Numbered from the stretch's first letter, positions 983 to 36,987 are shown. The stretch is 64,000 bases of DNA from Elusimicrobiota bacterium (GCA_016722575.1 JADKIY010000001.1:704810-768809); one strand, 5' to 3'. Numbers and translations: made by a program. The notes: a model not told the origin generated them from the letters alone.

Positions 983-1215
983 CCCCAAGGGCGCGTTAAC
1001 CTCCCGAAATTATCATTAGGTTGTTCCTAAGATGTTTGCCGATTCCCCGGGAGGGACGCCTTGCACCGATTAATTGCCTCCGATTGCCAATGCGACGCCT
1101 GCCGCCAACGGCGCGTCGCCTATCTGTGGGTTCGCGGCGGCCGACGGGACCACCGGTCTCGGCCCCCCCACACCGAAACCTCGAAACGACCCCCCGAAAA
1201 AACCAAATTGCGCCA

Positions 1216-4200
1216 ATGGTGGAGCAACCTTTTCCGATGCGGATAAACGGCCGATCCTTTTCGACCGCGTTGCGCCGCGGCGCCCGCCCCGTTCTGGGCG
1301 GCGCCCTGGCCGCCGTTTATTTCCTGGTCAACGTTCCGGGGGTATACGCCGTCGAATCCAGCTTTTGGTCGGACCGGCGGGAGCGCGCCGGACGACGGCG
1401 GTCGCCGGACAATCCAACCCTTTTAGCGCAATTGCCGTCGGGGGCTCGTGCGCCGTTGGGGGACGCGGTCCTTCCCCCGGTCGCCGGTCGATTGTCCGAG
1501 GAGTCCCTGGGCGGCGCCGCCCGCCTTCCGGCCAAGACGCCCGCCTCCCCCGCCCTGCAACGGGCGTTCGGCTGGTTGCCCGCCGTGGTCGCCCCCTACG
1601 GGGACGTTCGCGACGTTTATTTGTCGCCCCGCCCCGGCGCGCCCACCATCATCCACCTTCAAGACGCCCACGAAATCGCCGAAGCCCAAAGGAACCTCGC
1701 GGGCCTGACCACGGCCCTGAAATCCGCCCGGGGGCTCTCCCTGGTGGGCCTGGAAGGCGCGGTGGGCGCCTTCGCCCTGGATCCCTATCGCCGTTATCCC
1801 AACGCCGACATCACCCGGGCCTTGGCGGACACCTTTTTGGGATTGGGCTATTTGACCGGCCCCGAAGCGGCCGCCGTGACCGGCGACAAGCCGCCGCTCC
1901 TCTGGGGCGTGGAAGACGCCGGCCTTTACCGGGACAACATTTCCGCCTTCGAAAATTCCGAACGAACCCGGGCTCGCGTTCAAGCCTTGGCCGCGAAATT
2001 GTCGGCCGCCGCCGACGAGGCTCGCGACCGTTATTACTCCCCCGCCCTTCGGGCGCTGGACGACCACCGCCGGGCCTACCACGAGCGGAAAGAAGGTTTG
2101 GCCGCTTACGCCGCGTATCTGTGGGGTCTGCGCAAAGGATCGCGGACCGAATTCGAGAACACGCGCCTGTTGCGGGAAGCCCTGCAATGGGAGGAGCGCC
2201 TCGACTTCGTCCAAGTCGAGAACGAGCGCCGGGCCCTGGTGGAGGGTCTTTCGCGCCGTTTGCCCGAGGACGCCCTGGCCGGACTGGTCCGGGAAAGTCT
2301 GGATTACCGGGCGGGCCGCCTCTCCTACGGGGACTACCACCGGTATCTCCGCCGTCTCTGCGCGGACCACGGGTTGGGGTTGGAGCGTTATCCTCAATTA
2401 AGCGCTTACGTGTCTTACGTCTTGTTGGCCGAGCGGATCGACCGGGACGGTCTTCTTCAAGAGCTGGTCGCCCTGGAAAAATCGGCGGAATCCGCCCTGG
2501 CGGTTTCCCCGGAGGAAAAGGCCCTGGTCTCCGTGCGCCGCGGTCTGACTCTGCTGGACAAATTAACCACCCACGGATTGACCCCGGCCGAGTGGCAGTC
2601 CTATCTGGTCGAAAGGCCCCGGTTGTTGGCCCTTCCCAAAACCCTTTCGACCCTGGTTCCCGGACGGATCGCCGGCGCCGACGCCCTGACGCCGGAAACC
2701 CTCGATTCCTTCGAGCGTTTTTGCTCCCGGGCCCTGGACCGCAACGGCGCGCTGATCAAAAACCTGTTGGAAAAAATGCGGGCCGAGGGCGCCTCGGCCG
2801 CCGTCCTCGTGGCGGGGGGCTTCCACACGGCGGGGCTGGCCCAGCTTTGCCGTCAACAGGGTCTATCCTACGCCGTCGTTTCCCCCCGACTGGCCAAAGT
2901 GCCCGCCGAGACCCGGCCCCTGGACGTGTTCGCCCGTTCGCCGCTCCCCTTGGAGAAAATCCTCGCGGGCGACGTCATCCATCTGGCCTACCCCCGGCTC
3001 GGCCAGGCCGCCGGCGAAGGATTGGCGGCCCAGGGCGCCGCCGCGGCCCGCCAGCAGACGGCCCAAATCCTCTGGGCGTCCTTTCAGGAATTTCTGGGGG
3101 GCCTCGCCACCAATTTTTCCGAAGGCGACCGCGACCGATTCGCCGAATTTGCCCGCCAATTTACCGCCGTGAGCGATTTAAGTGCCGACGTGTTGGAGTT
3201 GGGCGGGGGGATACGCGCTCTCGCCGTTCGGGTCACGGTTTCCAATGGGGACAAGAAGGAATTGGCGCTCCTGAGCGCCCCGGACGGCCGGGAAAACGTC
3301 TACGACCGCTTCGGCGCGGAGCCGGCCTTCGCGGGGCGGGTGGAATTGCCCTCGGGTCCCCTGGCCCTTCGGGTGTATGCGTTGAGCGATGTGTCCGGCC
3401 CGGGCCTGATCGGCCGGGTGGTTTGGTGGGGGGACCGCACACGGGGGTATTGGTCGGCCCACGCTCGGTCGTTGATCCAGCAATTGAATTTCCGGCTCGC
3501 CGGTTTGTCGGCCCCCAAAAAAGCCGTCGTTGAAACGGAGCTCTCCCTGGAGGAAGCCCACGGCCGGGCCATCGCTGAAGTTTCGGCCCGGTTGGGTCTG
3601 CGGACCCGGGAACTGGAACCCATCGCCCACCACATGGTCCGGGTTCGGGACCTCGCCGATCATCTGGCGCGGTCCCTCGGAACGAACGCGGAGGACATCG
3701 CGCTTCTCCGTTTGGCGGCGAGCGCCCACGACATCGGCAAATTCCACGAGGACTGCGTGGAGCACGTGATCACCCCCGATATCTTTCCCAAGGATTCCCC
3801 GGCGTTCCGGGCCCTGGCCGAACACGAACAATTGGTTTTCGACGTTCTGGGCCGGCAAAAACTCGTCCTGTCCGCGGAAGTGGCGATGATCCTCCGCGCC
3901 CACAGCGCCCTCGGGGCCGGGGCGAAGGAATCGCTGGACGCGGTGCCGGGCTTGACGGAGCGGCACGTCCGGCTGGCGTTGATTTTGTCGTTGGCCGACG
4001 TTTCCGACGGGTACCGCGACATGCACCGGCCGTACATTCAAGCCTTGGTGCAAAAAAGCGGTTTCCCGACGCTGGATCAACTTCGCCGCGAATTCCTGAA
4101 ATACGCCGCCAAAGCGGCCGGCAGTTCCTACGCCGGGGCCCTGCCCGACGCGGAGTCGGTGTTCGCCCGGGCGGCGGCGGAGCCCTGGTTCGCCGCCGCC

Positions 4201-7200
4201 ACGGAACGCACGTTGATCGAACACGTCGCCGGTTTGGTGGAAGCCGCCACGGCGGGCGATCCCGACGCGGAAAAAGCCCGGCGGCTTTCCCGGGAGATTT
4301 CATCCCACCGAATTCCCGCGTTGGCCACCCCGCCCGACCGGTGGTGGTCGGCGTTGGTCGAATCCCTTTTTGTTCGAGGCGCGACGGGCGATCAACGGGC
4401 GGCCGTCCTGGAGTCGCTGTTGACCACGCTCCAAACCGAAACGGCGGCGGGCCGCATCGATGGCGGTTTGGGGCTCGCGGGTCTGACCGCGGGCCTCCTT
4501 CCCGCCGGGCGGTCCCGTCCGGCCGCGGCCCGGGAAATTCTTTTGGCGCGGGAATGGACCTCCGAGAAAGCGTTGGCCAAGGACATCGACGCGACGGCCC
4601 AAGCCGTTCGCGAGCTCGCCGCGCAATACCCCGCGGTGGCCCCGGCGGCGTTGTCCTCGTTGACCAGTTACGCCCTGGGGGAAACCGAAGGCCACGGCGC
4701 CTGGGACGGTTCACCGGCCCGGCTGGAACTTTCCCGCCGAGGGAACACCCTGCGTCTCCGCATTGAAAACGACGGGGGGTATCCGCTTCCCAATCGGGCG
4801 CCCAAGAACATCCGCAACCGTTCCTTCACTCCCGCGACCGCGGAGCCGCTGATCTACAGTTCCCGGGGCGTGGAGTCCGGGTCGGGCGCCGGGACCGCCT
4901 ACATCGCCGTTTACTTCCATCAAATCTATCAAGCGGGTCTTCCGGACCAACTCACTTCCCGGGCCCGATTGGCCTGGACCCAGCGGGCCCTGGGCGAAAA
5001 TCGGTACCGCATCGCCCTGACGGTCCACCTTCCCTTGACGTCGGCGGCAACGATTCGGGGCGGCGCCATCCCCGCCGTCGCCGCTTTTTGGGAGCCCAAG
5101 TTCGTCTCTCTCCTGGGCGAACGTTGGGGCCGCTACTTTTATCGCGCGGTGGCCGGGCCCACCCTGGAAGACCTGTTCGGCGGGCTCCGCAACGCCGAAT
5201 CCATCAACAGCGCGCTTCTCTTTCCGCTCCTCGTTGGTTTCTTGATGAATCTCGGGGGCGATCCGGTCCTGGGCGCCTTCGTTCCCGCCTTTATCCTGTT
5301 CTTTAACCGCCTGCTGTTCGTGGCGCGCCATCCCGAAGGCCAGCGAACCGAAGCCGGGTTCGTCGCCGCGCTGGGAGGCGCCGGGGCTTTTGCCGTGGCC
5401 TGGATGGGCGCCTTTTCTCCGGTGGCGGTGGCTCTCGGTTTCCTCGCGGGATGGTCCTTCCACGTCGCGACCAACGCCGTGTTCAATTTGCCCGTCCTTT
5501 TCCAAGGGAAGTCGAAGGAACCGTCGGCGCCCGCGGCCCCGGCCCGAACAAAAATTGGATTGGTCCTCCTGATGATGGGGACCCTTTTCCTCTCGCCCAT
5601 GTACCGGGGCGGGGGGAGCGCCCTGATCGACGCGGCGGCCGACCGCTGGGCCGGGTTGGGCATCGCCGCGATCGGCCTGTTGATGTTGGCGACGTCGGGC
5701 AACCCCTTCGCGAACGCCAAGCGGGGAATCGACCGGATTTTGACCTCGTCCTTTGCCCAGGGCCTTTCCCGGCGCTGGACGGGACTGGTGCGCTGGATCG
5801 GCCGGAACAAAAGCCCCCTGTTGGCCGCGGGCTTCGCCGCCGCCCTGGGGTCCCTTTTCGGGCCCTCCAACCCCGAATTGATGATCGCGGCGGCCGCGGC
5901 CACCGGGACCCCCCTGGTGCGCCGGTCGGAACGCCGGGATCTGAACATCGCCTCGGTGAGCGTCGAGTTGGCCCCGCCCCACGGGGAGGTCAACCGGCAA
6001 ATCCGGGGTCTGATGGCTTTCGGTCACTCGATCCTTCGCCGCAACGCGGCGGGCGGGTGGAGCGCGGAGAACCACCGGGGCGCCCTGTCCCTGACGACCC
6101 GCGACGGGGAGGACCTGTCCCGGGACGGCGTTCTCAACGATTTCGAAATTCACCTGGTGGGCGACGGGGCGTTCCGTTACCTGCACGTTTGGCCTTGGGG
6201 CGCCCAGGAGGGCCACGGCGGGGGTTTAAGCACCGTCGGAACCCTGAACCCCGTCAAACGCGTCTTCATCGCCCGGGGGTTGTGGGAATCCGACCGGGAA
6301 CGGGCCTTGACCGTCCTGAAGCACGAAGCCACCGAAGTTAATTTGTGGTGGGAGCATTCGCTCAAGTTGGGTGACGAAAAACAAATCGTCAGCGTGGACC
6401 GAAAAGCCGAGGCGCTGGCCGCCGTCGCGGCCTTTCGCGGGCGCCCGCGCAAAAAAGCGGACGCGTTGGTCGCGGCCGACGCCAAATTGCCGACCATCCG
6501 CGAATGGATTCGGGCCAACGCCCTGGGGGCCGTGGTGGCCCTCACCAACCGGTTTCACAACATGGCGAACCGCCGCTACCGGACCGAACACCCCATGGAT
6601 TTCATTCCCCTTCCCAACACCCTGAGCGGTTCGGTCGCCATGGTGAGCTGGGAGCACCGGGACTTTTTCAAGAGGGGCGGCTTGGGCGACGCCATCAGTG
6701 AAGCGTCCTTCAATCTGGCCAAGCTGGGCCAGGACGTGGACCTTTACATGCCCATGCACAAGGAAATGGAAAACAAGGTCCCCTGGGTCGACACCCACCT
6801 CACCGTGCCGGTGGCGACCGCGGGGGAACGGGTGGTCTTCCATCTGTTCCGAACCGAGATCGACGTGCCGACCCCGGGCGCCGGCCGCTTAACGGTGTAC
6901 GCGCTGAAAGACGTCACCCCGCGGTCCGGCGACACCGAACGCTGGCGGCTCTTCCAGTACGGGTACAACCCCCCCAACGACCTGCGGTATTACGATTACC
7001 CGCTCAAGGAATCCGCCTTGGGAGCCAAAGCGGTGGTGGAGGCCATGAAATTGGTGAGCGGTGACCGGCGGGGCCGCGTTCGCTACCGGGCCGTCAACGC
7101 CCACGACTGGCAAGCCGCTTTGGTGCCCGTGCTCATGAAAGGGGACGCCTCTTTCGCCGGCGTCGGTCGCATTTTGACCGTTCACAACGGGGCGTACATG

Positions 7201-13200: not shown

Positions 13201-16200
13201 GCCGGGGACACCGTCACGGTTTTGGAACAAATTCGCTCCCGCGGCGGTCCGGATTGGTCGGACGGCGGCGCCCTCGTCGTGGGGCATTCCTTGGGCGCCC
13301 ACGTCGCCACCACCGTGGCTCTGCGCCTTCAAGCGATGTCGCCGGGGGCCGTGCGGGGGGTCGTTCTTCTCAATCCGCCGGTGCCCAATGGCCTTTGGTA
13401 TTCCATGTTGATCGGCTGGCTCTCCTTCTTGAAGGGCGTCAGCGAGACTTTGGATTCCTGGATGGAGGCCGCGCGCTTCTCCTCCGCCTCCCGTCGGTCC
13501 CTTCGCCAACAGGAATCCCAGTGGTGGGGCCATTTCATCGAAAACTGGATCCCCTCGGCGGACGACGCTCGAACGACGGCCGACGCCCCGCCGGCCGTCC
13601 CCTGGGCCCTCTTCAACGGGTGGGACCACTTGCTGTCCGAGTCCCGGGCCCTGGGGAATTATTTGGAGACGACGCTGGCGGAATGCTTGGCCGAACTTTC
13701 GCGACTGCCCGCTCCGTTGCTGGTGGTCGGATCCCCCCACGATCCCCTGTGGGGGGAATTCGCGGCTTTTTATCGCGCGCTCCACCTTCGCGAGGTCGGC
13801 GAATCCGACGTTCTTCCGGAAACGGCCGCCCGGGCGCCCGCCCGCTTGTACGTCGAATTGTCGAACGGCGGCCAGGACGTATTGGCGGAGCACTCGCCCC
13901 ACATGTCGGCCCGCGCCGATCGGCTCAACGCGATTCTGGAGTCCTTTGCCCGGGCGGCCGACGGCCGCGGCCGCGCGGTGGGAGCCATCGGCCACCGCGT
14001 GGAGTTGGATTCGATTCGCTGGGGTCCCGACGGCTCCCTGATTTTCGCCCTTCAGCGGCCCGGCGGCTTCCCCCGGGACCTGCCCATCCTCTCGGCGACG
14101 CCGACGCGTTTTTCCGTTAAAGAGTCGATCGGCCGCCTGCGCCTTCGGGGCGGGGACCGCGGGACCCGATCCTCCGCGGACCCCCTGCGGCCCTTGGCGG
14201 ATCTTTTGGACCAACGGAGAATGTCGGCGCCCGCGGTCTACCGATTCGAGGATTCCCCCTTTAACCTTCGGGGGCTGGCTTTCGCCGGCACGGGGCTTCA
14301 CAACGCCGCCCTGGCGATTCACCAGGACCTGGCCCAATCCCAAGCGATCCGCGATCTGGCCATCCTCCACGAATTCCTCGAATACCTCTCCGCCAAAGGC
14401 TTCCTGGTCTACCGCTACGCGGCCGAAGAAGGGCTTCTTCGGATGAGTTTGAAAGTCCCGGGGACCTGGAGCGACTTCCAACGCCGGTGGGAGATCGAAC
14501 TGCCGCCGGCCGCCGCCGCTCTGGCCGCCCGGGGGGCGGAACGGGCCCACTACTTCCACCGCGCCCTGACCGCGGCCGCCTTGAACGACCTGGATGGGGA
14601 ATTGACCCGGACCATCCGGGAATCGGTGCGCCGACGGTTGCGGGTGGTGTCCGCGGCGAACGTCGGCGGTCGGGATAGAACCCTTCAGCCCGTTGTTCGA
14701 CGCCTGCGCCGCAACATGGAATCCGAGCATTTCATACCGCTCCTGGCCGAGTGGCTCCTCCACACGGGGATCCCCCGGAAGGACGGGTCCTTCAATTTGT
14801 TGCGCATGGAATTCCGGGCCTTTCCCAGCGGCGTGGTGTTGGAACGGCACGGCACGCTGGAGGAGCTCGACCTGAAAAGCCGCGGTTTTCAAACCGTTCG
14901 GTCCCTCCGTTCCGGGGACGTGGTCGTCCTTCCCTATTTGTTGAGCCAATTGATCGACGGTTACCGCCAACGCGTGGCCGAAACCGGGAAAGAACCGGAC
15001 GACGTTCATCCCAACGCCCTGCTGATGGATTTCCTCACCGCTCTTCCCGCCGGGGTGGTGCTGGCCTCGGTGGAGATGCCCTCGACCCTCGGGCAGTGGG
15101 GCCTGGAGGGGGCGCCCCTCGAGGGCTGGCTTCGCAATCACGCGCTGTGGGACGTGCCGCTCTGGCGGTTCATCCACGACACGGGTTGGTTCGACAACGT
15201 CTTGCCCCGGGCCGTGCCCCTCGACGCCCTGGACGGCGACCGGTTGAATCTGGACAACGGGACGTTCCTCACGCTCCAGGTCAAGCGGGATTCCCGGCTT
15301 CCGTCCGGCGGCCGGGCGGCGACCGGCGCCGTGTTGTCGCTGGCGTCCCCGAAGGGCGGGGACGGCGCTTTGTCCTCCCTCCTGACGCGCCGCTGGACGG
15401 AAAACGTTCTTCGACGGTGGGGGTTCCAACCGTCCGATCGATCCGTTCGCCTCGTCGCCGCCCTGGGCGTGGCCTGGTGGTACGAATTTCCGCGGACCCT
15501 CGCGGCGACCCGATTGGCCGATTTCGTTTACGAACACCCGGGGCCCCGGTGGATTCGTGTCGCCGGTTTGGCGGCGGTTTACGCGACGATGGGGTGGGCC
15601 TTCCTGGAAACCCTTCAATTCATGACCGGTCAAGCGAACCTCGTGCGTTTCGTCGCGGCCACGGCGGCGGCCCTGTTGGCCAATCCCCTGGGTCATTTCG
15701 CGTGGAATCTCGTTTTCGTTTGGACGGGGTGGGAACTGACCCGCGGTTCCGCCGTCCCCGCCCTCCCCATCCGCGCGGCCGGCCGTTCCCGGAGCGGATG
15801 GCGGGTGAAAACGGATTTGAGCGAACTGGAATTCCGTAACCGGAACACCGCGCCCGAAACCTGGACGCCCATTCCCCTTAAAGCCGAAGACAACGGAAGC
15901 TCCGCCCTCCCCTTCCTTCGACGCCCCTACGAACTTTTCCCCCGGTCCCCCCGCCGGGAAGGACCCGACGCCCCGAGCACTTCGGAAGTGGCCTACCTCC
16001 GGGTCGTCAAGGCCCTGGAATCCCTCGGCGCCTTGACGCCTCGATTGCTTTCGTACGACCCCGCCGCCCGGTTCCAGACCCCGGGCAAATCGGAACTTTT
16101 CGGACTGCGGGCGTTCTCCCATTGGATGCAAAAAAGCGACGGGGACTTGGTGGGCACGCCCGAGGGGTTGTCCTTCGTCGTCCTTCCCGCCGAGCTCTTT

Positions 16201-19200
16201 TCGGACCCCGCCGTCGCCCCGGCCGATCGCCGGGAGTATCTCGGAACGGCCGTCCTGATCGAGGCCATAAAAATTTTGCGTCTGGCCGGTCGCCTGACCC
16301 TGACCCTGGAGCGGGACGAACGGGGACCTTGGTTGTTGCTCTCGGTAACGAACGCCCAGGGGCGGGTGGAAACTTCGCGCTTCCTGGTGTACGGCGAGGT
16401 GGCCCGCATCCTAAGCCACCACCGGGATTTCCACCATTTGGCGCGGGCCCTCGTCGCCTATTGGATCCCGACCGCCGAAAAACGATTGAACGATTTTCTG
16501 GTGGCCCGGGACCTTCGCGGCTACGTGGAGATTTCGCCGGCGGCCGCGACCGCCGCCGCCCGCCCGCCGGCCCCGTGGGGCCGGGTCGCGGCGGCGCTTT
16601 TGGTCGGCGCGGCTCTGTCCTTCGGTCTGCCCGGAACGGATTTCATTTCCACGGCCGCCGCGGCGACCTGGACCCCCGCTTCCCCCGTCCGGTGGTTGGA
16701 TCCGTCCTTCGTGGCGACCGCCCTGACCTTGATTTTGCTCGCCGCGGCGGCGACGGTGGAGCCGCTTCGGGCCGGACTCCGCCGGTGGCCGGACCGCCTG
16801 GCGGCCGCCAAGGATTCGATTTTGATGATGGCCACGAGCCGCGGTCCCCCGGGCGGCCGCGGTCGCGGCGGGAATGGAAAACTCGGCGGAGAAGGCCCCC
16901 GCGTACCGGCCCGTGAAAAGGCCGAATTGCTTTTCAAGTTCAATGGGAAAATCGCCCTGGCGCGGAACGCCGGGGATTTTGAAACCCTCCGGGAAATATC
17001 GAATTGGGTGAAAGGCCTATCGCTTCGCCACGATCCCGACCTGGAGGCCGCCGTCCAACGATTGATCGCCGTCCACGACAGCCGCCGGGATTATCACTGG
17101 CGGCGGATGATCGGCAACGAAGAGCCCGCCGCGACGATCCAAGACGAATTGAAGTCCCTTTTGTTGAGTCGCCTGGGTTGGTCGCCCTCCCGACCGGCCC
17201 CCGCCGAAACGGAACGCCGGGCGACCGTTCTGTCGGCGGAAATTTTCAGCCGCGATCCTCGCAACAGCCGGGAATTGGATCAATGGATCGGCGAGGCCGT
17301 AAGATCATTGAGTCGGGACCTCCCCGCCAACGGCGGTTTGGAGCCGGCGATCCCCGTCGTTCCTTCCCCGTGGACGGGCGTGGCCACCGAAATAAAATCC
17401 GCGTCGGGCGAATTGCTGGCCACCATCCAAAAGGACGAGAACCGAAACGGATGGGTTCGGTTCTACGATGCGTCGGGTCGTCTTCGCCGGATGGAAAGCC
17501 GGGATCCGGCCCGTCCCGTCGTGGTTGTGAGGGAAGTCGGCCCCGGGGGCCGGCTCGACACCGTGATCGGCGGGCCGCGCTCGGCGGGGGGCGCTCCCCT
17601 GTCCCCCGTGTCCTTGGAGACGGACCGGTTGATCGAGGCCTTGGCGAATTACCACCGGTGGATCGCGGACTACGCGTCCTCCTTGCGGCGTCAAGGGGTT
17701 TCCGTGGAAGAAGCGACCGAGGCCGTGGAGTCCGCCCTTCGCGCGGGTCGCTACCGTTTGGCCGAACTGGTCGTGCGGAGCTGGCTGGACCTCCCGGGCA
17801 TGTACCGCCGGGCGGTGAACGGCGAAGAATCCTACCCGAACGAATTTCAAAGCCCACGGTTTCAGGGGACTTTTGCCGATTTTGTCAGAACGGTCGGGGA
17901 ACGGGGGGCGGTCCACGGCCTGAACAGCGCCACCTTGAAGGAGAATTCGGACGGCTCCCATTATTTTGTCCACGAGTTGATGCCGTTTACCTTGCTGGAA
18001 AACAGCATCAATTATCACTTTGCGAACATGCGCAATGACCTCAGCCCGGCGGGGGAAAACGAGCGGCCCGTCATCCTCTTCTTCGACATTGAGAAGTTGC
18101 CGCCCTTGTCCATGAAAAACCCGCTGGAAGTCAAATTCCGCGAAATGGTGGAAGCGCCCTTGGTCGCCCTGCGGCCCGAGAGTCGGCGGGTCGCGGAATC
18201 CCTCGTTGGCCCCCTCGAAGGATCGGGGGCGACGGCCGACGTTCGCCGGGCGCTGGACGACGCCGCCGGGTGGGCGCCGACTCCGGGGGCGGGACGAGCC
18301 CAACGGGGATACTCCCTGCCAATCGTTTTGGTGGGTTTATCGTTGGGGACTTTGGTGGCCCTTTCCGTGATTCCGTGGATTGGAATTTTCCCGTCTCTGG
18401 CGGCGGGCCTCCTCTCCGCGATCGCCGTTGCCTTGGCGGCGGAGAATTTGTTGATCCTCCCCGGCATCCGGTACGGACCTTCCCGGGCCGCTTTCGAGAC
18501 CCTGCGCCGGGCGGTGGCGGCGACCCAAACCATTCCCGAGGACGACCGGGCCCTGGCCGACCTTAAGAAATCGTTTACGGAGTTTAAGGCCGCGATGAAG
18601 GAATCGGCGGGCGGGATGCCCGACGCCTCCTCCTACCGCGCCTTCATGTGGGCGTTTTCCGACGGTTTGGACGCCGTGGTTCGGGAAGTGTTCCGGCGCG
18701 CGGCCCGGAAGCACCGCCTCTTGAACCGCACGGCCCTGATGGCCCACGGCAGTTACGGGTCCCGTCGGCCGGGCCTGATATCGGACGTCGATTTGCACCT
18801 TCTGCTTCCGAACGACTTGGCCTACCCGGCCCCGGACAACGAGACGGGCGCCGCCGCCGAGGCCCTGTATTACGGATTGGAAAAAGTCCTGAGCGCCCAG
18901 GACCCCAAGCCGCTGAAGGATTATCAGCACGCCGGCGACGTTGAGCGCGCCATGGCCTTTTGGGAACCCAGGTCCCATGAGATGGGGAGTCTCTACACGG
19001 GCGTGGACGCTCTGCGGGTCTACGGGTTGAACGCGCGCCCGGTGGCCGGCAACGCCCGGTTGTTCGAGGAGGGCGTCCGGCCGGGCTACCGGCGCCTGCT
19101 TTCCCGAAATCGGCGCGAAATCCTGCGCGGGGTGATCTTGGAGAGGGAGGCCCAATTTGAAAGGGCCGATTCCAGCTTGCTGCGCCCGGATTTCAAGGCC

Positions 19201-21474
19201 GGACTCGGGGGGGTCCGAGAATACGACGCCATCACTTGGATGAGCCGGTTCCTCTTTCCCCGGGGGGCCGAGGGGTTGGTCGGCCTTCTGTCGGGCTGGG
19301 CCGTTCTGGCGATTCAGCGTCGGGTGTCGCTCGGGCAACTGCTCCGGGCGCGGCAAGCGTTCCTTCGTCAAGCGCGCCTTCGGGACCGGCGCGTTGAATT
19401 CGAATCATTGACTCGCCCGGAGAAAATCCAATACGTCCAGGACGCCAGCCTCTTGTTCGACACGTTGGTGTCCCTTCAGCAGTCCTTCTGGCTCGAGGTG
19501 CGCCGACCCGAGGACCCGGAATATTTGCCCTTCTTTTTGGCCAGCGCGGGCTGGCGTCCGCCTTCGGCCACGACCGTCCAAGGGGCATTGGACGACGCGC
19601 TTTCGAAACGACAAGGCGGGGTGGTGGCCGTCGGGGCGCGGCGTTCCGGGGCCGACGGCATGGCCGAATTCTCCATCGAAGTCCTTCGGGACCGGCCCGG
19701 CGTTTTGGCCGTGCTTTCGGGCCTCATGGCGTCCCAGGGATTCAGCATCCGAGCGGCCGAGGCCCGATTTGAGCGGGGCCGGATCTTTGACCGGTTTTAC
19801 GTCCATCTCGGTTCCCTCGCCGCGGCGGACAAGAAAGTCCAGGACCGGGAAATCGCCCGTCTGGGTCAAACCGTGGAAAACGCGGCCGCCGATGTTTTGA
19901 GGGGCGAGCGGATCGACCTGGGGCGCGTGGCGGGGGAGTTCCGGGCCGCCGGCCGGGATTACCGCTTCGTCTTGCCGCGCAGTCGGCCGGTGGTCAAAAC
20001 CCTGGCTTACTTCTCCGGAGCGGCGGAGGCCCGGTCGCTCACGGTTTTAACCTCGGACCGGGTGCTGGGCGACGATGCGGGGGAGAAAGAATATCTCGGA
20101 ACCCTGCACGTCATCACCCGGTGGCTGGCGGAAAGGGGCCTCAACATCGTCGGGGATCCCAGCATCCGCACCCAGCGGGGCATCGTGATGGACACCTTCG
20201 GCCTGCGTCATTCGGACGGATCGTCCTTGACGGCCGCGGACGAGTCGACGGTGGAGGCGGTTCTCCAGCAATTCCTGGACCTCCCTGAAATCAGCGAAAG
20301 CGATTTCGGCCGGGACTCCGCGCTTCCCCCGATCCACGGCTCGGGGGAAGCCCCGGCGGGAATTCCGCTTCTTGGGGGGATGCCGAAGGCGACGCTCTTC
20401 GGGTGGAGCGCGCCCCTGTTGGCCGGGTTCCTCCCCGGCGGCCCCGCGTTCTTGCTCGTGGGGGGTATGGTTTTCTTGGCCGTTCACTGGTTCCAAAGCC
20501 GGGCCAAGACACGGGCGGAGAAGCCGGCGCCCGCGACGTCGCCCGTGGGGACGAGGCTTCTTTCCCGGGACCTGCTGAAGAGCGCTCTTTTGGGCGGTCC
20601 CGTCGGCCAAGTCATTGATTTCTCGCGGTACGACCTGGACGCGGCGTCCCTGCGCGCCGACGCCCTGGCCGGCCGCGCGGCGGCCCGGGACCGGCGGGAA
20701 CAGTTGGCCCGGGATTTGGGTTTGGAGCACGGCGCGTCCCTGGACGACATCGGTTATCGCCTGGGCCAACGGCACCGCGCGGGCCGGACGCCGTTGTCGC
20801 GGACGGAAGACCCCACCGCGCGGTTCGCCGACGAAATCGGCCTCTTGGCCCTCCTTTCCGACGGGTGGACCCGCGCCGGCGACCTGCCCGCCGACGCGTC
20901 TTCCGCCCTCGCCCAATACCACCGGGGCCAGGGACTCCTCGGCCTGCCCGCGCGCGTGACCGAGGCCTTGGCCGACGGCCGCCGTTTGGCCTTTGAAATT
21001 CCCACCGATCTGTTGCGTGGAAGAATCGCCGGGGAGCGGGACGCTTCGCTGGTCCGGGCTCTGGCCCTCGCGGCCGCGGCGTCCCCCGAGAACGAACGCT
21101 TGTCCTGGATCCTCCCCGCGGGAGTCGGTCGGGCGGAGCTGGACCGGTTCTTCGCCGAACGGCCCGAATTGGCCGCGCTTCAATCCCGGGGGAACGTGGT
21201 GGCGAAAGACAGCGCCCGCCTGGACGCCGCCGTCGGGCCCGCCTATTCCGTAAAGAGGCTGCTTCTGGAAGTCCAGGGCGTCAAAGACGAGTCCCGCTTG
21301 GCGGCCACGGACCTTTTCCTCTTGAACCGGGGCGAATGGAAGCTGGACTTGAGCGACGGCGCCAAGGGCTTGGTCAAGCTCTTGATCCTCTTGGCCGGCG
21401 ACGTGGTCTTCGACGCCACCGACCGCCTCGCCGACGACGTGAAGCGCCTGAACGTCGTTTCCACCAACGCCTAG
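1216..21474 (+). CDS. Giant multidomain secreted/membrane protein (about 6,750 aa). Domains in order: signal peptide, paralog-shared N-module, HD, GHKL-like, TM helices, GT5 glycogen-synthase-like, GT35-like glucan phosphorylase, alpha/beta-hydrolase, GlnD/GlnE-type nucleotidyltransferase, two ACT domains
   Basis: Single uninterrupted ORF with high GC3 throughout and a TAG stop at 21472-21474. The track start at TTG 1021 is unlikely because 1021-1215 is rich in A-ending codons. ATG 1216 and ATG 1237 (the latter with GGTGGAG upstream) are candidate starts; both give an Arg-rich then hydrophobic signal-like N-terminus. Recognisable motifs include HDIGK, KRGGLGD, AHDWQAA, RFEPSGLTE, WAGGLGPV, GHSLGAH and GSYGSRRPGLISDVDLHLLLP, plus two DRPG-type ACT signatures. 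Confidence 0.8.
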   Translation: MVEQPFPMRINGRSFSTALRRGARPVLGGALAAVYFLVNVPGVYAVESSFWSDRRERAGRRRSPDNPTLLAQLPSGARAPLGDAVLPPVAGRLSEESLGGAARLPAKTPASPALQRAFGWLPAVVAPYGDVRDVYLSPRPGAPTIIHLQDAHEIAEAQRNLAGLTTALKSARGLSLVGLEGAVGAFALDPYRRYPNADITRALADTFLGLGYLTGPEAAAVTGDKPPLLWGVEDAGLYRDNISAFENSERTRARVQALAAKLSAAADEARDRYYSPALRALDDHRRAYHERKEGLAAYAAYLWGLRKGSRTEFENTRLLREALQWEERLDFVQVENERRALVEGLSRRLPEDALAGLVRESLDYRAGRLSYGDYHRYLRRLCADHGLGLERYPQLSAYVSYVLLAERIDRDGLLQELVALEKSAESALAVSPEEKALVSVRRGLTLLDKLTTHGLTPAEWQSYLVERPRLLALPKTLSTLVPGRIAGADALTPETLDSFERFCSRALDRNGALIKNLLEKMRAEGASAAVLVAGGFHTAGLAQLCRQQGLSYAVVSPRLAKVPAETRPLDVFARSPLPLEKILAGDVIHLAYPRLGQAAGEGLAAQGAAAARQQTAQILWASFQEFLGGLATNFSEGDRDRFAEFARQFTAVSDLSADVLELGGGIRALAVRVTVSNGDKKELALLSAPDGRENVYDRFGAEPAFAGRVELPSGPLALRVYALSDVSGPGLIGRVVWWGDRTRGYWSAHARSLIQQLNFRLAGLSAPKKAVVETELSLEEAHGRAIAEVSARLGLRTRELEPIAHHMVRVRDLADHLARSLGTNAEDIALLRLAASAHDIGKFHEDCVEHVITPDIFPKDSPAFRALAEHEQLVFDVLGRQKLVLSAEVAMILRAHSALGAGAKESLDAVPGLTERHVRLALILSLADVSDGYRDMHRPYIQALVQKSGFPTLDQLRREFLKYAAKAAGSSYAGALPDAESVFARAAAEPWFAAATERTLIEHVAGLVEAATAGDPDAEKARRLSREISSHRIPALATPPDRWWSALVESLFVRGATGDQRAAVLESLLTTLQTETAAGRIDGGLGLAGLTAGLLPAGRSRPAAAREILLAREWTSEKALAKDIDATAQAVRELAAQYPAVAPAALSSLTSYALGETEGHGAWDGSPARLELSRRGNTLRLRIENDGGYPLPNRAPKNIRNRSFTPATAEPLIYSSRGVESGSGAGTAYIAVYFHQIYQAGLPDQLTSRARLAWTQRALGENRYRIALTVHLPLTSAATIRGGAIPAVAAFWEPKFVSLLGERWGRYFYRAVAGPTLEDLFGGLRNAESINSALLFPLLVGFLMNLGGDPVLGAFVPAFILFFNRLLFVARHPEGQRTEAGFVAALGGAGAFAVAWMGAFSPVAVALGFLAGWSFHVATNAVFNLPVLFQGKSKEPSAPAAPARTKIGLVLLMMGTLFLSPMYRGGGSALIDAAADRWAGLGIAAIGLLMLATSGNPFANAKRGIDRILTSSFAQGLSRRWTGLVRWIGRNKSPLLAAGFAAALGSLFGPSNPELMIAAAAATGTPLVRRSERRDLNIASVSVELAPPHGEVNRQIRGLMAFGHSILRRNAAGGWSAENHRGALSLTTRDGEDLSRDGVLNDFEIHLVGDGAFRYLHVWPWGAQEGHGGGLSTVGTLNPVKRVFIARGLWESDRERALTVLKHEATEVNLWWEHSLKLGDEKQIVSVDRKAEALAAVAAFRGRPRKKADALVAADAKLPTIREWIRANALGAVVALTNRFHNMANRRYRTEHPMDFIPLPNTLSGSVAMVSWEHRDFFKRGGLGDAISEASFNLAKLGQDVDLYMPMHKEMENKVPWVDTHLTVPVATAGERVVFHLFRTEIDVPTPGAGRLTVYALKDVTPRSGDTERWRLFQYGYNPPNDLRYYDYPLKESALGAKAVVEAMKLVSGDRRGRVRYRAVNAHDWQAALVPVLMKGDASFAGVGRILTVHNGAYMGNFRLKNDDGTDSYNQEFLRGLGLPAGYDRFGPGDPIEFHGQIVLQKAALLAAHKINPVSPQYRNELLSPDDYVLPGNTRDMAGVYRARQADLVGVMNGLDDDIWNPERDPAIADAPYAYTPFVARDVREKKPANKSNFQKALGLTVDRDAPMLYTCARLSEQKGFDFVADAMEGLLTEFPKAQFVLMGDSDNSEMGNDLARRFTDFMTRYPGRVWFGPFGGRGGWEHYMGAAADFVLSPSRFEPSGLTEKKGMRLGAVPIVRAVGGLQDTVVDPREDADNANGFKFIEPTGAAFGEAARRALRAYEAGHGQRLGDEPNIDLLQQNAMRTPKSWEDVAREYLGLYSAARDAAHDESTAEVAARRHAVPPAAPLIGHLPAGVDLGAIRLERGDEVRGALADLEEWMATVVSGPPPTLAGSRRGETIPQTLDMLRQELGALSSDADAGLFDADAFQRESAGRVLGFGFAETKTATGRARLGLSDEFFNPDSVLYPHRREALFHEAYHVVLGVADNSTIHRDALRIQAALFWGVPVEEAYALSLEQLEAHPKNALGRALRVRRLLRDFRGEDVNGLADLLGEKLENGQLIPFLTEADDALNAPLALSPTALERRTWERVDLMRRLEGQPPRGRGDLDPRFLEARRAEEDWSKPLIESGPVEAPQPLLKAIALLTTEQEDRLLNELSAAVAQDSALADRPIVDDIFLMTGRIPKGWAKLHGIAYQRVYHLSAEGRKVWAGGLGPVQVFHSDAERQITRDSAFDVVDIEPDYTHRRTAEGMVPAERARPSTPLKPSLEPPFDLEVKFQGRPVKIRVRPMRGPEGNPVYLFRDNPDGDAHFTKQLYDYRPSGDNPASWEEFTAFFGVATLAVIGRLEENRSKALGAQWRPPVLHGNDAQTAMAIVLLAEIVRGGNPRSEELVQSVPFLAKLAPLAARTFKTHTYGNRQGYTWGRPEDHYGVASYLSGIPEWDHQRLNFYFARRGPEAHGYPDVTAAAIAATPGHAQAVARKHGWDVMRKYDDPQSVVGITNGANLKWSAGLFWDYLDEVGHENADRLRPTAEQVRDAKRLAKERFFTDLLVHPQHVEEQFYRRFRFILNDPAKRGEPTPAVDPALLSQPTVGFVGRLVNEKFNMNRGWTTRNIEELVKAGYNVVLFAPIQQKSDPTSPSAAMARTLEALSGNLDREWRPGHGRLIYIDSRDSELKKSALASLDILVLDSDKDTEANGYTEVAASASGALVLSPPFHNGEGLIRGQGMPIDFSQPGHGNTLIPDNQKPESYVAVLKKALEVYQQRPMDFAAHQATSVRLSRVLEARLTAAASLRDFNLSYSLPLGVATDPLWFGGVSVAENQPANLEAWVRVRPGVDATHLDVRARLGEVPAGPAWGGEWSNGREIRLEPAGPAVTAADGTVALRFAKSVELPRGAYEFVVESRDRREPRYWVLQDGIRWGQNNRLLVGTPAPTGAPAGLLPLWRPVIQNFRFAGWSDRTTVRVLGVVEELFLMGAVTLLGRVLEMTLGLPSGVSLLLSAGTAVALFPLGHVGGVHFFEPSGRLKLYQATARDLTKLTILGAGLRTVHLGLALGLPWLLTALAGAPILGPPGAWIELAAQLLPFLAVPLLHGRYNANPPRGWPLGILSFQHALLAIRWGTTVSAGFFERFVPRQGVPVGDGYISNPRRTALIDRTVAALAGMADARLNGLNPLSLKGILDIVLKNVEQHGVPGADAQAAARIDGGDFLLEIRNETIAPLSPELNGEFSVGRSNPRVAVENRSPGTGYGIGVTRLPGLVRGLYDVGAADFAERARWSWTTDAATREVVFQLRAPLPPAPAAGKAHEFVSEWEIPGAVPEAPAPVPIWGLVGRRFVALTASVALFMSGLVSDSSRAWSHPVSPATREASAVPAGSDQPSALLSAGAMVVPLASRRRRNDFWHQVEAGKHPGWRLLRVPGANGETIEAAVKESGQGPLVVWNYGGGAGPVLNRQADWFANRPGVVVRRRDADAHVLVGQTAGDTVTVLEQIRSRGGPDWSDGGALVVGHSLGAHVATTVALRLQAMSPGAVRGVVLLNPPVPNGLWYSMLIGWLSFLKGVSETLDSWMEAARFSSASRRSLRQQESQWWGHFIENWIPSADDARTTADAPPAVPWALFNGWDHLLSESRALGNYLETTLAECLAELSRLPAPLLVVGSPHDPLWGEFAAFYRALHLREVGESDVLPETAARAPARLYVELSNGGQDVLAEHSPHMSARADRLNAILESFARAADGRGRAVGAIGHRVELDSIRWGPDGSLIFALQRPGGFPRDLPILSATPTRFSVKESIGRLRLRGGDRGTRSSADPLRPLADLLDQRRMSAPAVYRFEDSPFNLRGLAFAGTGLHNAALAIHQDLAQSQAIRDLAILHEFLEYLSAKGFLVYRYAAEEGLLRMSLKVPGTWSDFQRRWEIELPPAAAALAARGAERAHYFHRALTAAALNDLDGELTRTIRESVRRRLRVVSAANVGGRDRTLQPVVRRLRRNMESEHFIPLLAEWLLHTGIPRKDGSFNLLRMEFRAFPSGVVLERHGTLEELDLKSRGFQTVRSLRSGDVVVLPYLLSQLIDGYRQRVAETGKEPDDVHPNALLMDFLTALPAGVVLASVEMPSTLGQWGLEGAPLEGWLRNHALWDVPLWRFIHDTGWFDNVLPRAVPLDALDGDRLNLDNGTFLTLQVKRDSRLPSGGRAATGAVLSLASPKGGDGALSSLLTRRWTENVLRRWGFQPSDRSVRLVAALGVAWWYEFPRTLAATRLADFVYEHPGPRWIRVAGLAAVYATMGWAFLETLQFMTGQANLVRFVAATAAALLANPLGHFAWNLVFVWTGWELTRGSAVPALPIRAAGRSRSGWRVKTDLSELEFRNRNTAPETWTPIPLKAEDNGSSALPFLRRPYELFPRSPRREGPDAPSTSEVAYLRVVKALESLGALTPRLLSYDPAARFQTPGKSELFGLRAFSHWMQKSDGDLVGTPEGLSFVVLPAELFSDPAVAPADRREYLGTAVLIEAIKILRLAGRLTLTLERDERGPWLLLSVTNAQGRVETSRFLVYGEVARILSHHRDFHHLARALVAYWIPTAEKRLNDFLVARDLRGYVEISPAAATAAARPPAPWGRVAAALLVGAALSFGLPGTDFISTAAAATWTPASPVRWLDPSFVATALTLILLAAAATVEPLRAGLRRWPDRLAAAKDSILMMATSRGPPGGRGRGGNGKLGGEGPRVPAREKAELLFKFNGKIALARNAGDFETLREISNWVKGLSLRHDPDLEAAVQRLIAVHDSRRDYHWRRMIGNEEPAATIQDELKSLLLSRLGWSPSRPAPAETERRATVLSAEIFSRDPRNSRELDQWIGEAVRSLSRDLPANGGLEPAIPVVPSPWTGVATEIKSASGELLATIQKDENRNGWVRFYDASGRLRRMESRDPARPVVVVREVGPGGRLDTVIGGPRSAGGAPLSPVSLETDRLIEALANYHRWIADYASSLRRQGVSVEEATEAVESALRAGRYRLAELVVRSWLDLPGMYRRAVNGEESYPNEFQSPRFQGTFADFVRTVGERGAVHGLNSATLKENSDGSHYFVHELMPFTLLENSINYHFANMRNDLSPAGENERPVILFFDIEKLPPLSMKNPLEVKFREMVEAPLVALRPESRRVAESLVGPLEGSGATADVRRALDDAAGWAPTPGAGRAQRGYSLPIVLVGLSLGTLVALSVIPWIGIFPSLAAGLLSAIAVALAAENLLILPGIRYGPSRAAFETLRRAVAATQTIPEDDRALADLKKSFTEFKAAMKESAGGMPDASSYRAFMWAFSDGLDAVVREVFRRAARKHRLLNRTALMAHGSYGSRRPGLISDVDLHLLLPNDLAYPAPDNETGAAAEALYYGLEKVLSAQDPKPLKDYQHAGDVERAMAFWEPRSHEMGSLYTGVDALRVYGLNARPVAGNARLFEEGVRPGYRRLLSRNRREILRGVILEREAQFERADSSLLRPDFKAGLGGVREYDAITWMSRFLFPRGAEGLVGLLSGWAVLAIQRRVSLGQLLRARQAFLRQARLRDRRVEFESLTRPEKIQYVQDASLLFDTLVSLQQSFWLEVRRPEDPEYLPFFLASAGWRPPSATTVQGALDDALSKRQGGVVAVGARRSGADGMAEFSIEVLRDRPGVLAVLSGLMASQGFSIRAAEARFERGRIFDRFYVHLGSLAAADKKVQDREIARLGQTVENAAADVLRGERIDLGRVAGEFRAAGRDYRFVLPRSRPVVKTLAYFSGAAEARSLTVLTSDRVLGDDAGEKEYLGTLHVITRWLAERGLNIVGDPSIRTQRGIVMDTFGLRHSDGSSLTAADESTVEAVLQQFLDLPEISESDFGRDSALPPIHGSGEAPAGIPLLGGMPKATLFGWSAPLLAGFLPGGPAFLLVGGMVFLAVHWFQSRAKTRAEKPAPATSPVGTRLLSRDLLKSALLGGPVGQVIDFSRYDLDAASLRADALAGRAAARDRREQLARDLGLEHGASLDDIGYRLGQRHRAGRTPLSRTEDPTARFADEIGLLALLSDGWTRAGDLPADASSALAQYHRGQGLLGLPARVTEALADGRRLAFEIPTDLLRGRIAGERDASLVRALALAAAASPENERLSWILPAGVGRAELDRFFAERPELAALQSRGNVVAKDSARLDAAVGPAYSVKRLLLEVQGVKDESRLAATDLFLLNRGEWKLDLSDGAKGLVKLLILLAGDVVFDATDRLADDVKRLNVVSTNA

Positions 21475-21512
21475 TCCGGCCCGCCGTTGATTTTTTGTAT
21501 CGTGTCGGTCCC

Positions 21513-26112: not shown

Positions 26113-26874
26113 GTGTTGCTCCTCGGTCACAGACGACCGGTATGCTCCCTCGTCGCGCCTTGCCCAGGGCCAAAATCCTCTCGGCAAAACGCTCAATTTA
26201 TTTTGACTCAAGCCCCAAACGAATCCCGCTCCCGTCGCGACCGGTTTTGGCCCTGGGTCGTCTCCTGGTTGGGGTGGCTGATTCTCCAATTCATTGGACG
26301 CACCTCCCGAATGGTGGTCCGTTGGTCCCCCGCCGCCCAATCGCTTCGAGAAAGTTCCCGCCCGATGATTTTTGCCTTCTGGCATCGTTACCAGTTGCTG
26401 ATGGCCTGGGAACACCGGGGCCGGGGCGTGACCGTGCTGGTCAGCCGCAGCCGGGACGGGGAATTCATCGCCGGGGTTCTGGAGCGCCTGGGATATCGGA
26501 CGGCGCGGGGGTCTTCCAGCCGGGGCGGGCCCGCGGCGTTTATGGAATTGCTGGACGTCGTGAACGCGGGCGGCCGGGTGGCCTTCACCCCCGACGGACC
26601 CCGGGGGCCCGCGCGGTCCATTCAGCCGGGCGTGTTGGCCCTGGCGGCCAAAACCGGGGTTCCCATCGTCCCCGTGGCCTGGGCCGGGACGCCGGTCAAA
26701 ACCCTTTCCAGCTGGGACCGATTCATGATCCCCCTGCCTTTCGGGCGGTTCCACGTGGTTTTCGGCGATCCCCTGATCGTGACGGCGGCCGATGGTGCGG
26801 CGGAGGAAAATTTGCGTCGGGCTCTAAATCAAGCCGAAGCCGACGCGGGTGAAGAACGGGAGACCGCGTGTTGA
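26113..26874 (+). CDS. DUF374-family protein (lysophospholipid-acyltransferase-like), of the kind often found next to Kdo transferase
   Basis: Conserved block FAFWHRYQLL...SRSRDGEF...GYRTARGSSSRGG...VAFTPDGPRGP typical of DUF374. Lies immediately upstream of and overlapping waaA. The start is uncertain and may be downstream of 26113. Confidence 0.65.
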   Translation: MLLLGHRRPVCSLVAPCPGPKSSRQNAQFILTQAPNESRSRRDRFWPWVVSWLGWLILQFIGRTSRMVVRWSPAAQSLRESSRPMIFAFWHRYQLLMAWEHRGRGVTVLVSRSRDGEFIAGVLERLGYRTARGSSSRGGPAAFMELLDVVNAGGRVAFTPDGPRGPARSIQPGVLALAAKTGVPIVPVAWAGTPVKTLSSWDRFMIPLPFGRFHVVFGDPLIVTAADGAAEENLRRALNQAEADAGEERETAC

Positions 26875-32865: not shown

Positions 32866-32870
32866 TCCCC

Positions 32871-35778: not shown

Positions 35779-35819
35779 GACGGCGCCAATGAACCCGTCG
35801 GCCCCGAATGATATGATCC

Positions 35820-36971: not shown

Positions 36972-36987
36972 ACAACGGAGTACGCCC

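Follow-up and report, generated by a model that had tools for sequence, protein, structure and literature searches.

A giant single-frame enzyme mosaic in an Elusimicrobiota bacterium and its predicted protein family

The locus and its open reading frame

The 64,000-nucleotide (nt) stretch of Elusimicrobiota bacterium DNA analyzed here (GCA_016722575.1, JADKIY010000001.1:704810-768809; hereafter the window) carries on its plus strand a giant gene, at 1216..21474, that encodes a protein of 6,752 amino acids (aa) followed by a stop codon. From its open frame, its periodicity of G+C at third codon positions (GC3) and the orthologous open reading frames (ORFs) found elsewhere, it is a genuine, conserved single-ORF chromosomal gene of this bacterium, located between queA and tgt. 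The frame is free of stops over 6,817 codons (1021..21474, plus strand), and no internal stop occurs downstream of the probable start, the ATG at 1216 (other candidate ATGs are at 1090 and 1237). At the 66% G+C of the window, about 2.4% of random codons would be stops, or about 160 over the length of this frame; since none is found, the frame did not arise by chance. GC3 (0.71–0.87) exceeds the G+C of the other two codon positions in all 600-nt segments of the frame, with the exception of one tie, and the coding signal is therefore uniform and in a single frame throughout. A first-pass annotation, made from the sequence alone, had described one unbroken giant frame with coding-type composition all along it, and both observations hold. 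The long antisense ORFs of this region lack the GC3 pattern. Two antisense ORFs lie opposite the window's two genes of the family described below: one at 12199-16131 (minus strand, 1,310 aa), wholly without coding-type composition, and one at 61154-63994 (minus strand, 946 aa), which passes a loose composition filter alone; each is antisense to a family gene that has homologues in its favor. High G+C content looks to be the source of both ORFs, and either could be mis-called as a gene.

Orthologues were recovered from other assemblies. A metagenome scan with the region of the second GT5 domain (see below) yielded two loci, both from JGI sample Ga0268298. The first, L086, holds one uninterrupted ORF that reaches at least 7,719 aa without closing within the stretch fetched and that is colinear with giant aa 24–6115; identity is 40% over giant aa 24–1230, 24% over 1575–1713, 52% over 2054–3880, 27% over 3876–4279, 45% over 5233–5365 and 51% over 5694–6115. 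The second, L087, has an ORF spanning at least 5,791 aa, whose colinearity with the giant covers giant aa 1575–6115. On a 755-kb JGI contig (L080), the gene order is ruvCAB-spoIID-queA-[968 aa]-[8,202 aa], and both of the numbered ORFs are colinear with the giant, so that the orthologue directly follows queA, as it does in the window (queA-giant-tgt-secD). A family member lies directly downstream of queA in L081 as well, and since the L080 and L081 members both adjoin queA, this position appears to be a conserved insertion site for the family. In the window, queA (7-951) and tgt (21336-22679), both genes of the queuosine pathway, are parted by the 20-kb giant gene. Between the giant and a fragment from Elusimicrobiota metagenome-assembled genome (MAG) AMR_MDS_0494 (L001; 82% identical over 783 codons), dN/dS is 0.12.

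Could the giant frame nevertheless be an artefact in which ordinary neighboring genes have been joined, through a frameshift-fused mis-assembly or as a pseudogene in decay? Breaks, real or due to sequencing error, do occur: the L080 orthologue is called as two ORFs of 968 and 8,202 aa in different frames, split at 12907-12919, with 12 nt between them and the break inside the homologous region. Sequencing error, a genuine split of the gene and programmed frameshifting are all candidate causes of this break. On the other hand, the absence of stops where about 160 would be expected, the uniform GC3 signal, the colinear single ORFs of at least 7,719 and 5,791 aa in another metagenome, the recurrence of identical cassette junctions in three independent proteins (P0029, P0111 and P0124) and the dN/dS of 0.12 all argue against an artefact, which is highly improbable and close to refuted.

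Enzyme cassettes and membrane segments

The protein was scanned with Pfam and NCBIfam models in overlapping 900-aa pieces. Its glucan cassette opens with a glycogen/starch synthase domain of family GT5 (aa 1807–2345, 6634..8250), which matches TIGR02095 end to end (276.9 bits, E = 3e-82, model positions 3–476 of 477), PF08323 (Glyco_transf_5; 106.9 bits, E = 2e-30) and the structure of Escherichia coli glycogen synthase (2qzs; E = 9e-42), together with an Agrobacterium structure. Its motifs can be read in the translation: KxGGL as KRGGL, the R/K pair in ARLSEQKG and the catalytic Glu in SRFEPSGL, which we take to have the roles of the KxGGL loop, the R300/K305 pair and the catalytic E377 of E. 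coli GlgA. The glycogen synthase of the first-pass annotation is thus borne out, and the domain, being full length with its catalytic motifs in place, looks catalytically intact. Since it scores below the curated NCBIfam cut-offs for GlgA (276.9 versus 328.45 bits, and 266 versus 459), it belongs to GT5 but is not nameable as GlgA by the NCBIfam rule. A helical linker domain with an HExxH motif (FHEAYH) follows at aa 2470–2596 (8623..9003). An iterated hidden Markov model (HMM) finds this domain solely in the giant, in L080, in P0029 and, twice, in P0111; the HExxH is kept in L080 and P0111 and lost in P0029. The candidate role of a general linker was rejected, the domain being confined to the glucan cassette and its motif not always kept.

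Next in the cassette is a second GT-B glycosyltransferase (aa ~2700–3310, 9313..11145), formerly read as a glucan-phosphorylase-like (GT35) domain. PF08323 matches it at aa 2787–2899 (24.6 bits versus a cut-off of 22.7). When a profile of this domain from the giant and four homologues was aligned with hhalign to a GT5 set consisting of E. coli GlgA and two further GlgA domains, the probability was 90% (E = 1.6e-6, 359 columns), versus 0.6% over 49 columns for GT35 (E. coli GlgP plus MalP). The domain retains equivalents of GlgA D137, H161, R300, K305 and E377, and it has EANGYTEVA where GT35 has EASGTxxMK, with Ala at the site of the lysine that carries pyridoxal phosphate (PLP), a substitution invariant in three orthologues. 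Because it aligns to GT5, keeps these D, H, R, K and E equivalents and lacks the PLP lysine, the sequence identifies it as a very divergent GT5-like transferase; the identity as a GT35 alpha-glucan phosphorylase is excluded by the hhalign probability and the missing lysine. The pairing of a glucan-building with a glucan-degrading enzyme falls with it: since the supposed GT35 domain aligns to GT5 and not to GlgP or MalP, there is no evidence for a degrading half. The second domain is the best-conserved part of the giant (66–70% identical to its orthologues) and, like the first, looks catalytically intact. A PDB profile search with it gave no sequence match, and a homologue search with giant aa 2355–3470 returned a single fragment, P0028. 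The cassette closes with an end domain (aa ~3330–3460, 11203..11595) that is conserved with P0029 (over giant aa 1797–3471) and P0111; it gave no HMM matches and is rich in beta strands by eye, and one might guess that it binds carbohydrate.

Upstream of the glucan cassette, the HD motif noted earlier proved to be an HD phosphohydrolase domain (aa 804–929, 3625..4002), with 30.4 bits against PF01966 (cut-off 22), 22 bits against HDIG and a PDB match to 4mcw (E = 6e-4). The motif reads SAHDIGK, and the domain is common to P0001, P0003, P0112 and P0124. The GHKL-like block fared less well. Two stretches, at aa ~1165–1310 (4708..5145) and aa ~3680–3800 (12253..12615), resemble GHKL motifs, an unproven assignment in both cases: no HATPase_c match was found at E ≤ 0.1 in the Pfam scan of the giant, and hhalign to the catalytic domain of EnvZ gave E = 0.44 for block 1 and a weak E = 0.14 for block 2, whose N-box-like stretch is LSLKGILDIVLKNVEQHG. 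Only motif-length stretches, N-box-like and G1-like, aligned in these comparisons. The two blocks align to each other with E = 0.022, and block 1 is conserved in P0002 and P0030. The alpha/beta-hydrolase cassette (aa 3911–4490, 12946..14685) is recognized from a G-H-S-x-G elbow and from Pfam matches at aa ~4000–4090, all of them below cut-off (E = 2e-4 to 9e-3; Abhydrolase_3, 1.8e-4; Abhydrolase_1, 3.5e-4). The elbow, G-H-S-L-G, is invariant in five homologues (alignment A7: G123, H124, S125 and G127), and the sole entries returned by a PDB profile search were esterases and lipases, at a non-significant E of 0.13–1. The earlier serine hydrolase thus stands as a GXSXG hydrolase-like domain with weaker support. 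The cassette is shared with P0118, P0124, L086 and L087. A further segment (aa 5233–5365, 16912..17310) matches no family and is 42–45% identical in L086 and L087.

Near the C-terminus lies a GlnD/GlnE-type nucleotidyltransferase (aa ~5760–6115, 18493..19560), followed by two ACT-like domains (aa ~6145–6354, 19648..20277). GlnD_UR_UTase (PF08335) matches at aa ~5975–6060 with 25.7 bits (cut-off 21), GlnD N-terminal models match too, and NF003467 and NF002837 reach 28–29 bits. The pol-beta motif GSYGSRRPGLISDVDL, of the pattern G-S-x10-D-x-D, is invariant in the orthologues (alignment A8), and the region is 46–51% identical in L086 and L087; a PDB profile search with it gave nothing significant. 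The ACT match near aa 6156 is weak (20.4 bits versus a cut-off of 27, E = 4.6e-4), and positions 665–849 of TIGR01693 (GlnD) align to giant aa 6145–6354 (E = 1.6e-5), a part of the model that we take to be the two ACT domains of GlnD. The ACT region is shared with P0084. Of the GlnD-type cassette proposed in the first pass, the succession of a nucleotidyltransferase and two ACT-like domains therefore remains, but "PII-uridylyltransferase" is an overstatement, because no HD domain lies between the transferase and the ACT domains. A Pfam search of aa 5750–6752 found none, the one at aa 804–929 being the sole HD of the giant, and full-length GlnD equivalog scores are not reached (19–29 bits versus cut-offs of 519–1255). 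Across the HMM check as a whole, HD, GT5 and GlnD_UR_UTase exceed their cut-offs, the hydrolase and ACT domains are sub-threshold and HATPase_c gave no match at E ≤ 0.1.

Hydrophobic, charge-free segments separate these cassettes, at aa 25–46, 1329–1553, 3478–3625, 3851–3867, ~4765–4840, 5124–5181, 5698–5742 and 6392–6428; the clusters of hydrophobic helices described in the first pass are found at the same nucleotide ranges, along with several additional ones. By hydropathy, transmembrane (TM) cluster I (aa 1329–1553, 5200..5874) has about 6–7 helices and is partly conserved in P0002 and P0030, whereas cluster II (aa 3478–3625, 11647..12090) is a module found in P0005, P0124, L086 and L087. 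Cluster III (aa ~4765–4840) and a helix pair (aa 5124–5181) together span 15508..16758, and the sequence between them has no HMM or PDB matches. Another helix pair (aa 5698–5742, 18307..18441), conserved in L086 and L087, precedes the nucleotidyltransferase, and a last hydrophobic segment (aa 6392–6428, 20389..20499) follows the ACT-like domains.

A family with a conserved head and tail

The N-terminus bears a hydrophobic helix (aa 25–46, 1288..1353) that, by hydropathy, may be a signal peptide or a signal anchor, in agreement with the signal-peptide-like N-terminus noted at first. A small-x-small site follows it, VYA/VE in the giant and [AS]-H-[AS]/x-E in paralogue sequences. The helix is part of an N-module (aa 24–597, 1285..3006), delineated with alignment A2 and an AlphaFold2 model (predicted local distance difference test score, 75.7) in which a small parallel alpha/beta core is interrupted by some 290 aa of inserted helical sequence. 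The residues invariant in A2 are D150, H152, Q158, N160, E180, R509, N510, G534, G535 and H537 (protein position = alignment position + 23), and in the model the D-x-H, E, R-N and G-G-x-H come after predicted strands. A 2His/2Glu catalytic motif has been described for RRSP and the Ere enzymes (PMC6254334). There is moderate support from the model for a match between the invariant residues and this motif, with Asp in place of the first Glu, and likewise for a TIKI/TraB/Ere-type alpha/beta core. The N-module gave no matches to Pfam, TraB included, or NCBIfam and nothing significant in a PDB profile search; a Foldseek search with the whole module was also not significant, its result being dominated by the helical insertion.

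A C-module with a Rossmann-like alpha/beta fold (aa 6441–6752, 20536..21471), showing no catalytic-type conservation, closes the giant, and the same module of about 300 aa closes about 28 of 166 family proteins, including members of 5,700–6,500 aa. It is always at the extreme C-terminus, and its last residue is always Ala, as in 13 of 13 aligned C-modules (alignment A5; ...VVSTNA, ...LRINA, ...IKIQA; the giant's own tail is at 21454-21471). This pattern suggests that the free C-terminus of the C-module may itself be recognized by some partner.

How widespread are these modules? A search with the first 1,500 aa of the giant found aa 24–597 in common with proteins of 900–2,500 aa that bear different enzymes, namely PEP-utilising enzymes, PutA and a protein kinase. 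An exhaustive search with an N-module profile returned 9,843 representative proteins at E ≤ 1e-3, of which 6,589 reach E ≤ 1e-30. Among the 150 best matches, the module is always N-terminal, and the proteins are 579–7,623 aa long; many proteins of the family measure 3,000–7,600 aa. The GTDB species genomes contain 249 confirmed N-module loci. Among the 79 of these that were listed, 77 are from Elusimicrobia or Elusimicrobiota MAGs, with 3–8 loci per MAG, some in tandem, one is from Omnitrophota (L076) and one from a "Planctomycetia" bin; beyond that Omnitrophota locus, the carriers from this phylum comprise one protein (P0027). At least 14 ORFs at the GTDB loci exceed 3,900 aa and run off the fetched flank. 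The window itself has a second member at 60095..64000 (plus strand), a tblastn match that follows polA and fpg. The window ends before the ORF of this member does, at a length of at least 1,301 aa; its N-module is 33% identical to that of the giant, and the ORF has no Pfam match. A homologue search with the C-terminal 1,550 aa of the giant returned nothing.

The cassettes of the giant recur in other members. P0029 shares the whole block from the GlgA domain through the second GT5 (giant aa 1797–3471) together with the C-module, and it has a UDP-glucose-pyrophosphorylase-type match upstream of the glucan cassette. P0111 consists of the N-module, the second-GT5 cassette (giant aa 2352–3454) and the C-module. 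In P0124, one of the carriers of the hydrolase cassette alongside P0118, this cassette follows TM cluster II, as in the giant. Ten members of 4,571–4,950 aa (alignment A6) carry glutamate dehydrogenase, 6-phosphogluconolactonase (6PGL), FBPase, PPDK, isocitrate lyase, malate synthase and AceK, in addition to PGM, NDP-sugar transferases, kinases, phosphatases and response regulators; in P0144, glutamate dehydrogenase, 6PGL, FBPase and a full PPDK are fused. PutA is also among the cargo of the family. At the start of every family member stand a hydrophobic helix, either signal or anchor, and a TIKI/TraB-like module of about 570 aa, and many end in the C-module; in the middle, enzymes of ordinary soluble kinds, grouped in cassettes, take turns with TM-helix bundles. 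Because smaller members contain the giant's cassettes, one at a time or several together as a block, the sequences identify a bookended, cassette-shuffling set of apparently membrane-associated enzyme mosaics, in which cassettes have been exchanged among paralogues. The architecture, which was not recognized in the first pass, thus places the giant in a family of about 10^4 clusters, and it fits the giant-protein class known from Omnitrophota.

The other genes of the window are of the housekeeping type, namely queA, tgt, secDF, lipopolysaccharide (LPS) core genes and polA. An LPS core and lipid A cluster extends over 26113-39296 (plus strand) and comprises DUF374, a Kdo transferase, a GT9 heptosyltransferase, a polysaccharide deacetylase, two GT4 enzymes and an O-antigen ligase. 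It includes a 705-aa protein, in which a 350-aa N-terminal half without an assignment is fused to GT4, and a 622-aa protein that has a lipid A acyltransferase in its C-terminal half only. A type II/IV secretion ATPase (T2SSE with MshEN) is encoded at 44978-46795 (plus strand), 23 kb downstream of the giant; its gene is flanked by those for CTP synthase and a lactate/malate dehydrogenase, and its surroundings in the window showed no further secretion genes.

Possible function and relation to known systems

What would such a protein do? The reading that we favor, at roughly even odds (a probability of about 0.5), is that of a membrane-tethered enzyme array that would make alpha-glucan under metabolite control. 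From N- to C-terminus, the cassettes are HD, a possible ATPase-like block, the glucan cassette, the serine-hydrolase cassette and the GlnD-type nucleotidyltransferase with its two ACT-like domains. The TM bundles would staple these cassettes to the inner membrane. The GT5, nucleotidyltransferase and HD cassettes would face the cytoplasm, since GT5 needs a sugar nucleotide and the other two need nucleotides, and an array tethered to the inner membrane is the simplest model because the nucleotide-dependent domains need cytoplasmic substrates. The two GT5 domains might then polymerize alpha-1,4-glucan from ADP- or UDP-glucose at the membrane, while the ACT domains might sense a small metabolite and the nucleotidyltransferase might modify a partner or the array itself, tuning its activity; the HD, nucleotidyltransferase and ACT cassettes would together provide metabolite-responsive control. 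A catalytic role, as a peptidase or an esterase, is probable for the N-module throughout the family, because its His/acid hydrolase-type motif is conserved.

Several observations weigh against this array, and its topology is the main uncertainty. The N-terminus resembles a Sec signal peptide or an N-in anchor, which would put the N-module on the non-cytoplasmic side, along with the HD domain and the first ATPase-like block. The helix counts of the TM clusters are ambiguous, so that the membrane face of each cassette is not fixed and the side of the later ones is not established. For the analogous Omnitrophota giants, DeepTMHMM predicts much of the metabolic content to be outside the cytoplasm. 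In addition, no PII gene lies nearby in the window, and about 45% of the giant has no domain assignable by Pfam, NCBIfam or PDB searches. The "ligand-regulated alpha-glucan machine at the envelope" of the first-pass annotation is accordingly a reading of part of the protein, reasonable but unproven.

The conserved head also allows an account in which the giant is a self-processing polyprotein: the TIKI/TraB-like module would act on the precursor as a peptidase, in cis or in trans, and release individual enzymes or membrane-anchored fragments, and the single ORF would be a means of expressing and targeting a set of enzymes together at a fixed stoichiometry. The hydrolase-type motif (D-x-H, E, R-N, G-G-x-H) is indeed invariant across members whatever their cargo, and the relatives of the fold include true endopeptidases, RRSP and Tiki (the latter as cited in PMC6254334), although the same superfamily also holds esterases and the non-enzymes ChaN and PMT. 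Omnitrophota giants, too, often have a C39 or S8 peptidase domain at their start, and such domains have been proposed to act in processing; the invariant free Ala that ends the C-module might serve as a tag for recognition. However, the giant has no internal repeats or repeated cleavage motifs that could mark the sites of processing (no self-BLAST match at E ≤ 0.01 and no pair of 14-aa windows with a BLOSUM62 score ≥ 42), and processing of this kind appears unlikely. Still somewhat less likely is an exported or surface effector array, as proposed for the Archaeovorins of Omnitrophota, in which most of the chain would cross the inner membrane and act on external substrates derived from prey or host. 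The signal-peptide-like N-terminus with its conserved small-x-small site would suit export, and the TraB, GumN, ChaN and Tiki relatives of the head are usually extracytoplasmic. Omnitrophota giants that combine a signal peptide plus TM helices with starch-synthase and PGM content have a predicted outward orientation, and a secretion ATPase gene lies 23 kb away. Against export, the GT5, nucleotidyltransferase and HD domains require nucleotide substrates that are absent outside the cytoplasm, the Pfam and NCBIfam scans found no adhesin, dockerin, lectin, lytic transglycosylase or repeat domains, and the neighbors are housekeeping genes.

One may speculate, with considerable doubt, that the bookended family as a whole did not arise from chance fusions but is a dedicated Elusimicrobiota system for building, shuffling and deploying membrane-bound (or exported) blocks of central metabolism, in which the head hydrolase and the free C-terminus would act in maturation, either by processing or by head-to-tail docking. 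If this were true, much of glycogen, gluconeogenic, glyoxylate and amino-acid metabolism would run on giant membrane scaffolds, a metabolic organization of a sort undescribed in any cultivated organism. Giants that combine metabolic enzymes with TM segments have been reported only recently, in Omnitrophota, where their role and the side of the membrane on which they work are unsolved. The locus reveals a second phylum with its own, much larger radiation, with about 10^4 clusters, several per genome, head and tail modules and exchangeable cassettes. At 6.8 thousand amino acids (kAA), with orthologues, an intact-looking glycogen synthase and a compact signature, the giant is a far more tractable test case than Omnitrophota proteins of 40–150 kAA. 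It allows direct tests of topology, processing and activity, and it points to a large unannotated family in Elusimicrobiota.

How does the giant compare with known systems? Its first GT5 domain is like bacterial GlgA in matching GlgA models end to end and in having the KxGGL motif, the R/K pair and the catalytic Glu, but unlike GlgA it sits inside a giant membrane protein and is followed by a second, divergent GT5-like domain. The C-terminal cassette likewise has a pol-beta-type nucleotidyltransferase with GlnD_UR_UTase and then two ACT-like domains, in the order of GlnD, but it differs in having no HD between them, in scoring far below the equivalog cut-offs and in being flanked, at the nucleotidyltransferase, by TM helices. 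The head resembles the TIKI/TraB/PrgY/GumN/ChaN/erythromycin-esterase superfamily in its acid-x-His, Glu and G-G-x-His placed after parallel strands, as in the 2His/2Glu motif. In this case, however, the core is interrupted by an insertion of about 290 aa, Asp stands where the motif has its first Glu, and the domain forms the N-terminal head of multi-kiloresidue enzyme mosaics. By analogy only, the MARTX toxins are also giant bacterial chains with swappable enzymatic cassettes between conserved ends and with a TIKI-fold domain (RRSP). Their TIKI domain, on the other hand, is cargo, their ends are repeat regions and a cysteine protease processes them, whereas the cargo of the giant's family consists of central-metabolism enzymes, and neither repeats nor the cysteine protease domain were detected.

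The closest known class, compared by description, is that of the Omnitrophota multi-enzyme giants, the "Archaeovorins" of West-Roberts et al. 2023 (bioRxiv 10.1101/2023.11.21.568195). That preprint and a second one (bioRxiv 10.64898/2026.06.07.730766) describe numerous TM regions together with GT5 domains of the glycogen-synthase type, GT1, PPDK and glycolytic enzymes; of the long Omnitrophota proteins, whose function is unresolved, 94% have TM helices and/or a signal peptide. The second preprint also defines a "multi-enzyme metabolic cluster" class that has a sugar-metabolism module and a regulatory module (HATPase_c, HD). Elusimicrobia were named among the phyla prone to huge proteins in a survey (PMC11573180). 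Neither TraB nor Elusimicrobia is mentioned in bioRxiv 10.64898/2026.06.07.730766, and the available text of bioRxiv 10.1101/2023.11.21.568195 does not describe head and tail modules of this kind. The two groups are alike in that a single, very long ORF encodes numerous TM helices and/or a signal peptide as well as many ordinary enzyme domains, among them starch/glycogen-synthase GT5, GT1, HD and, tentatively in the giant, histidine-kinase-type ATPase content, joined in the giant's paralogues by PPDK, FBPase and PGM. They are unlike in phylum and in size (6.8 kAA in Elusimicrobiota versus 10–147 kAA), and the giant is without SecA_DEAD, HEAT, TPR, dockerin, C39 and S8 domains (none detected in the Pfam and NCBIfam scans; for the hallmark SecA_DEAD, HEAT and TPR domains, none at E ≤ 0.1). 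Instead, the family of the giant is defined by its two ends, a TIKI/TraB-like N-module at the head and the C-module at the tail.

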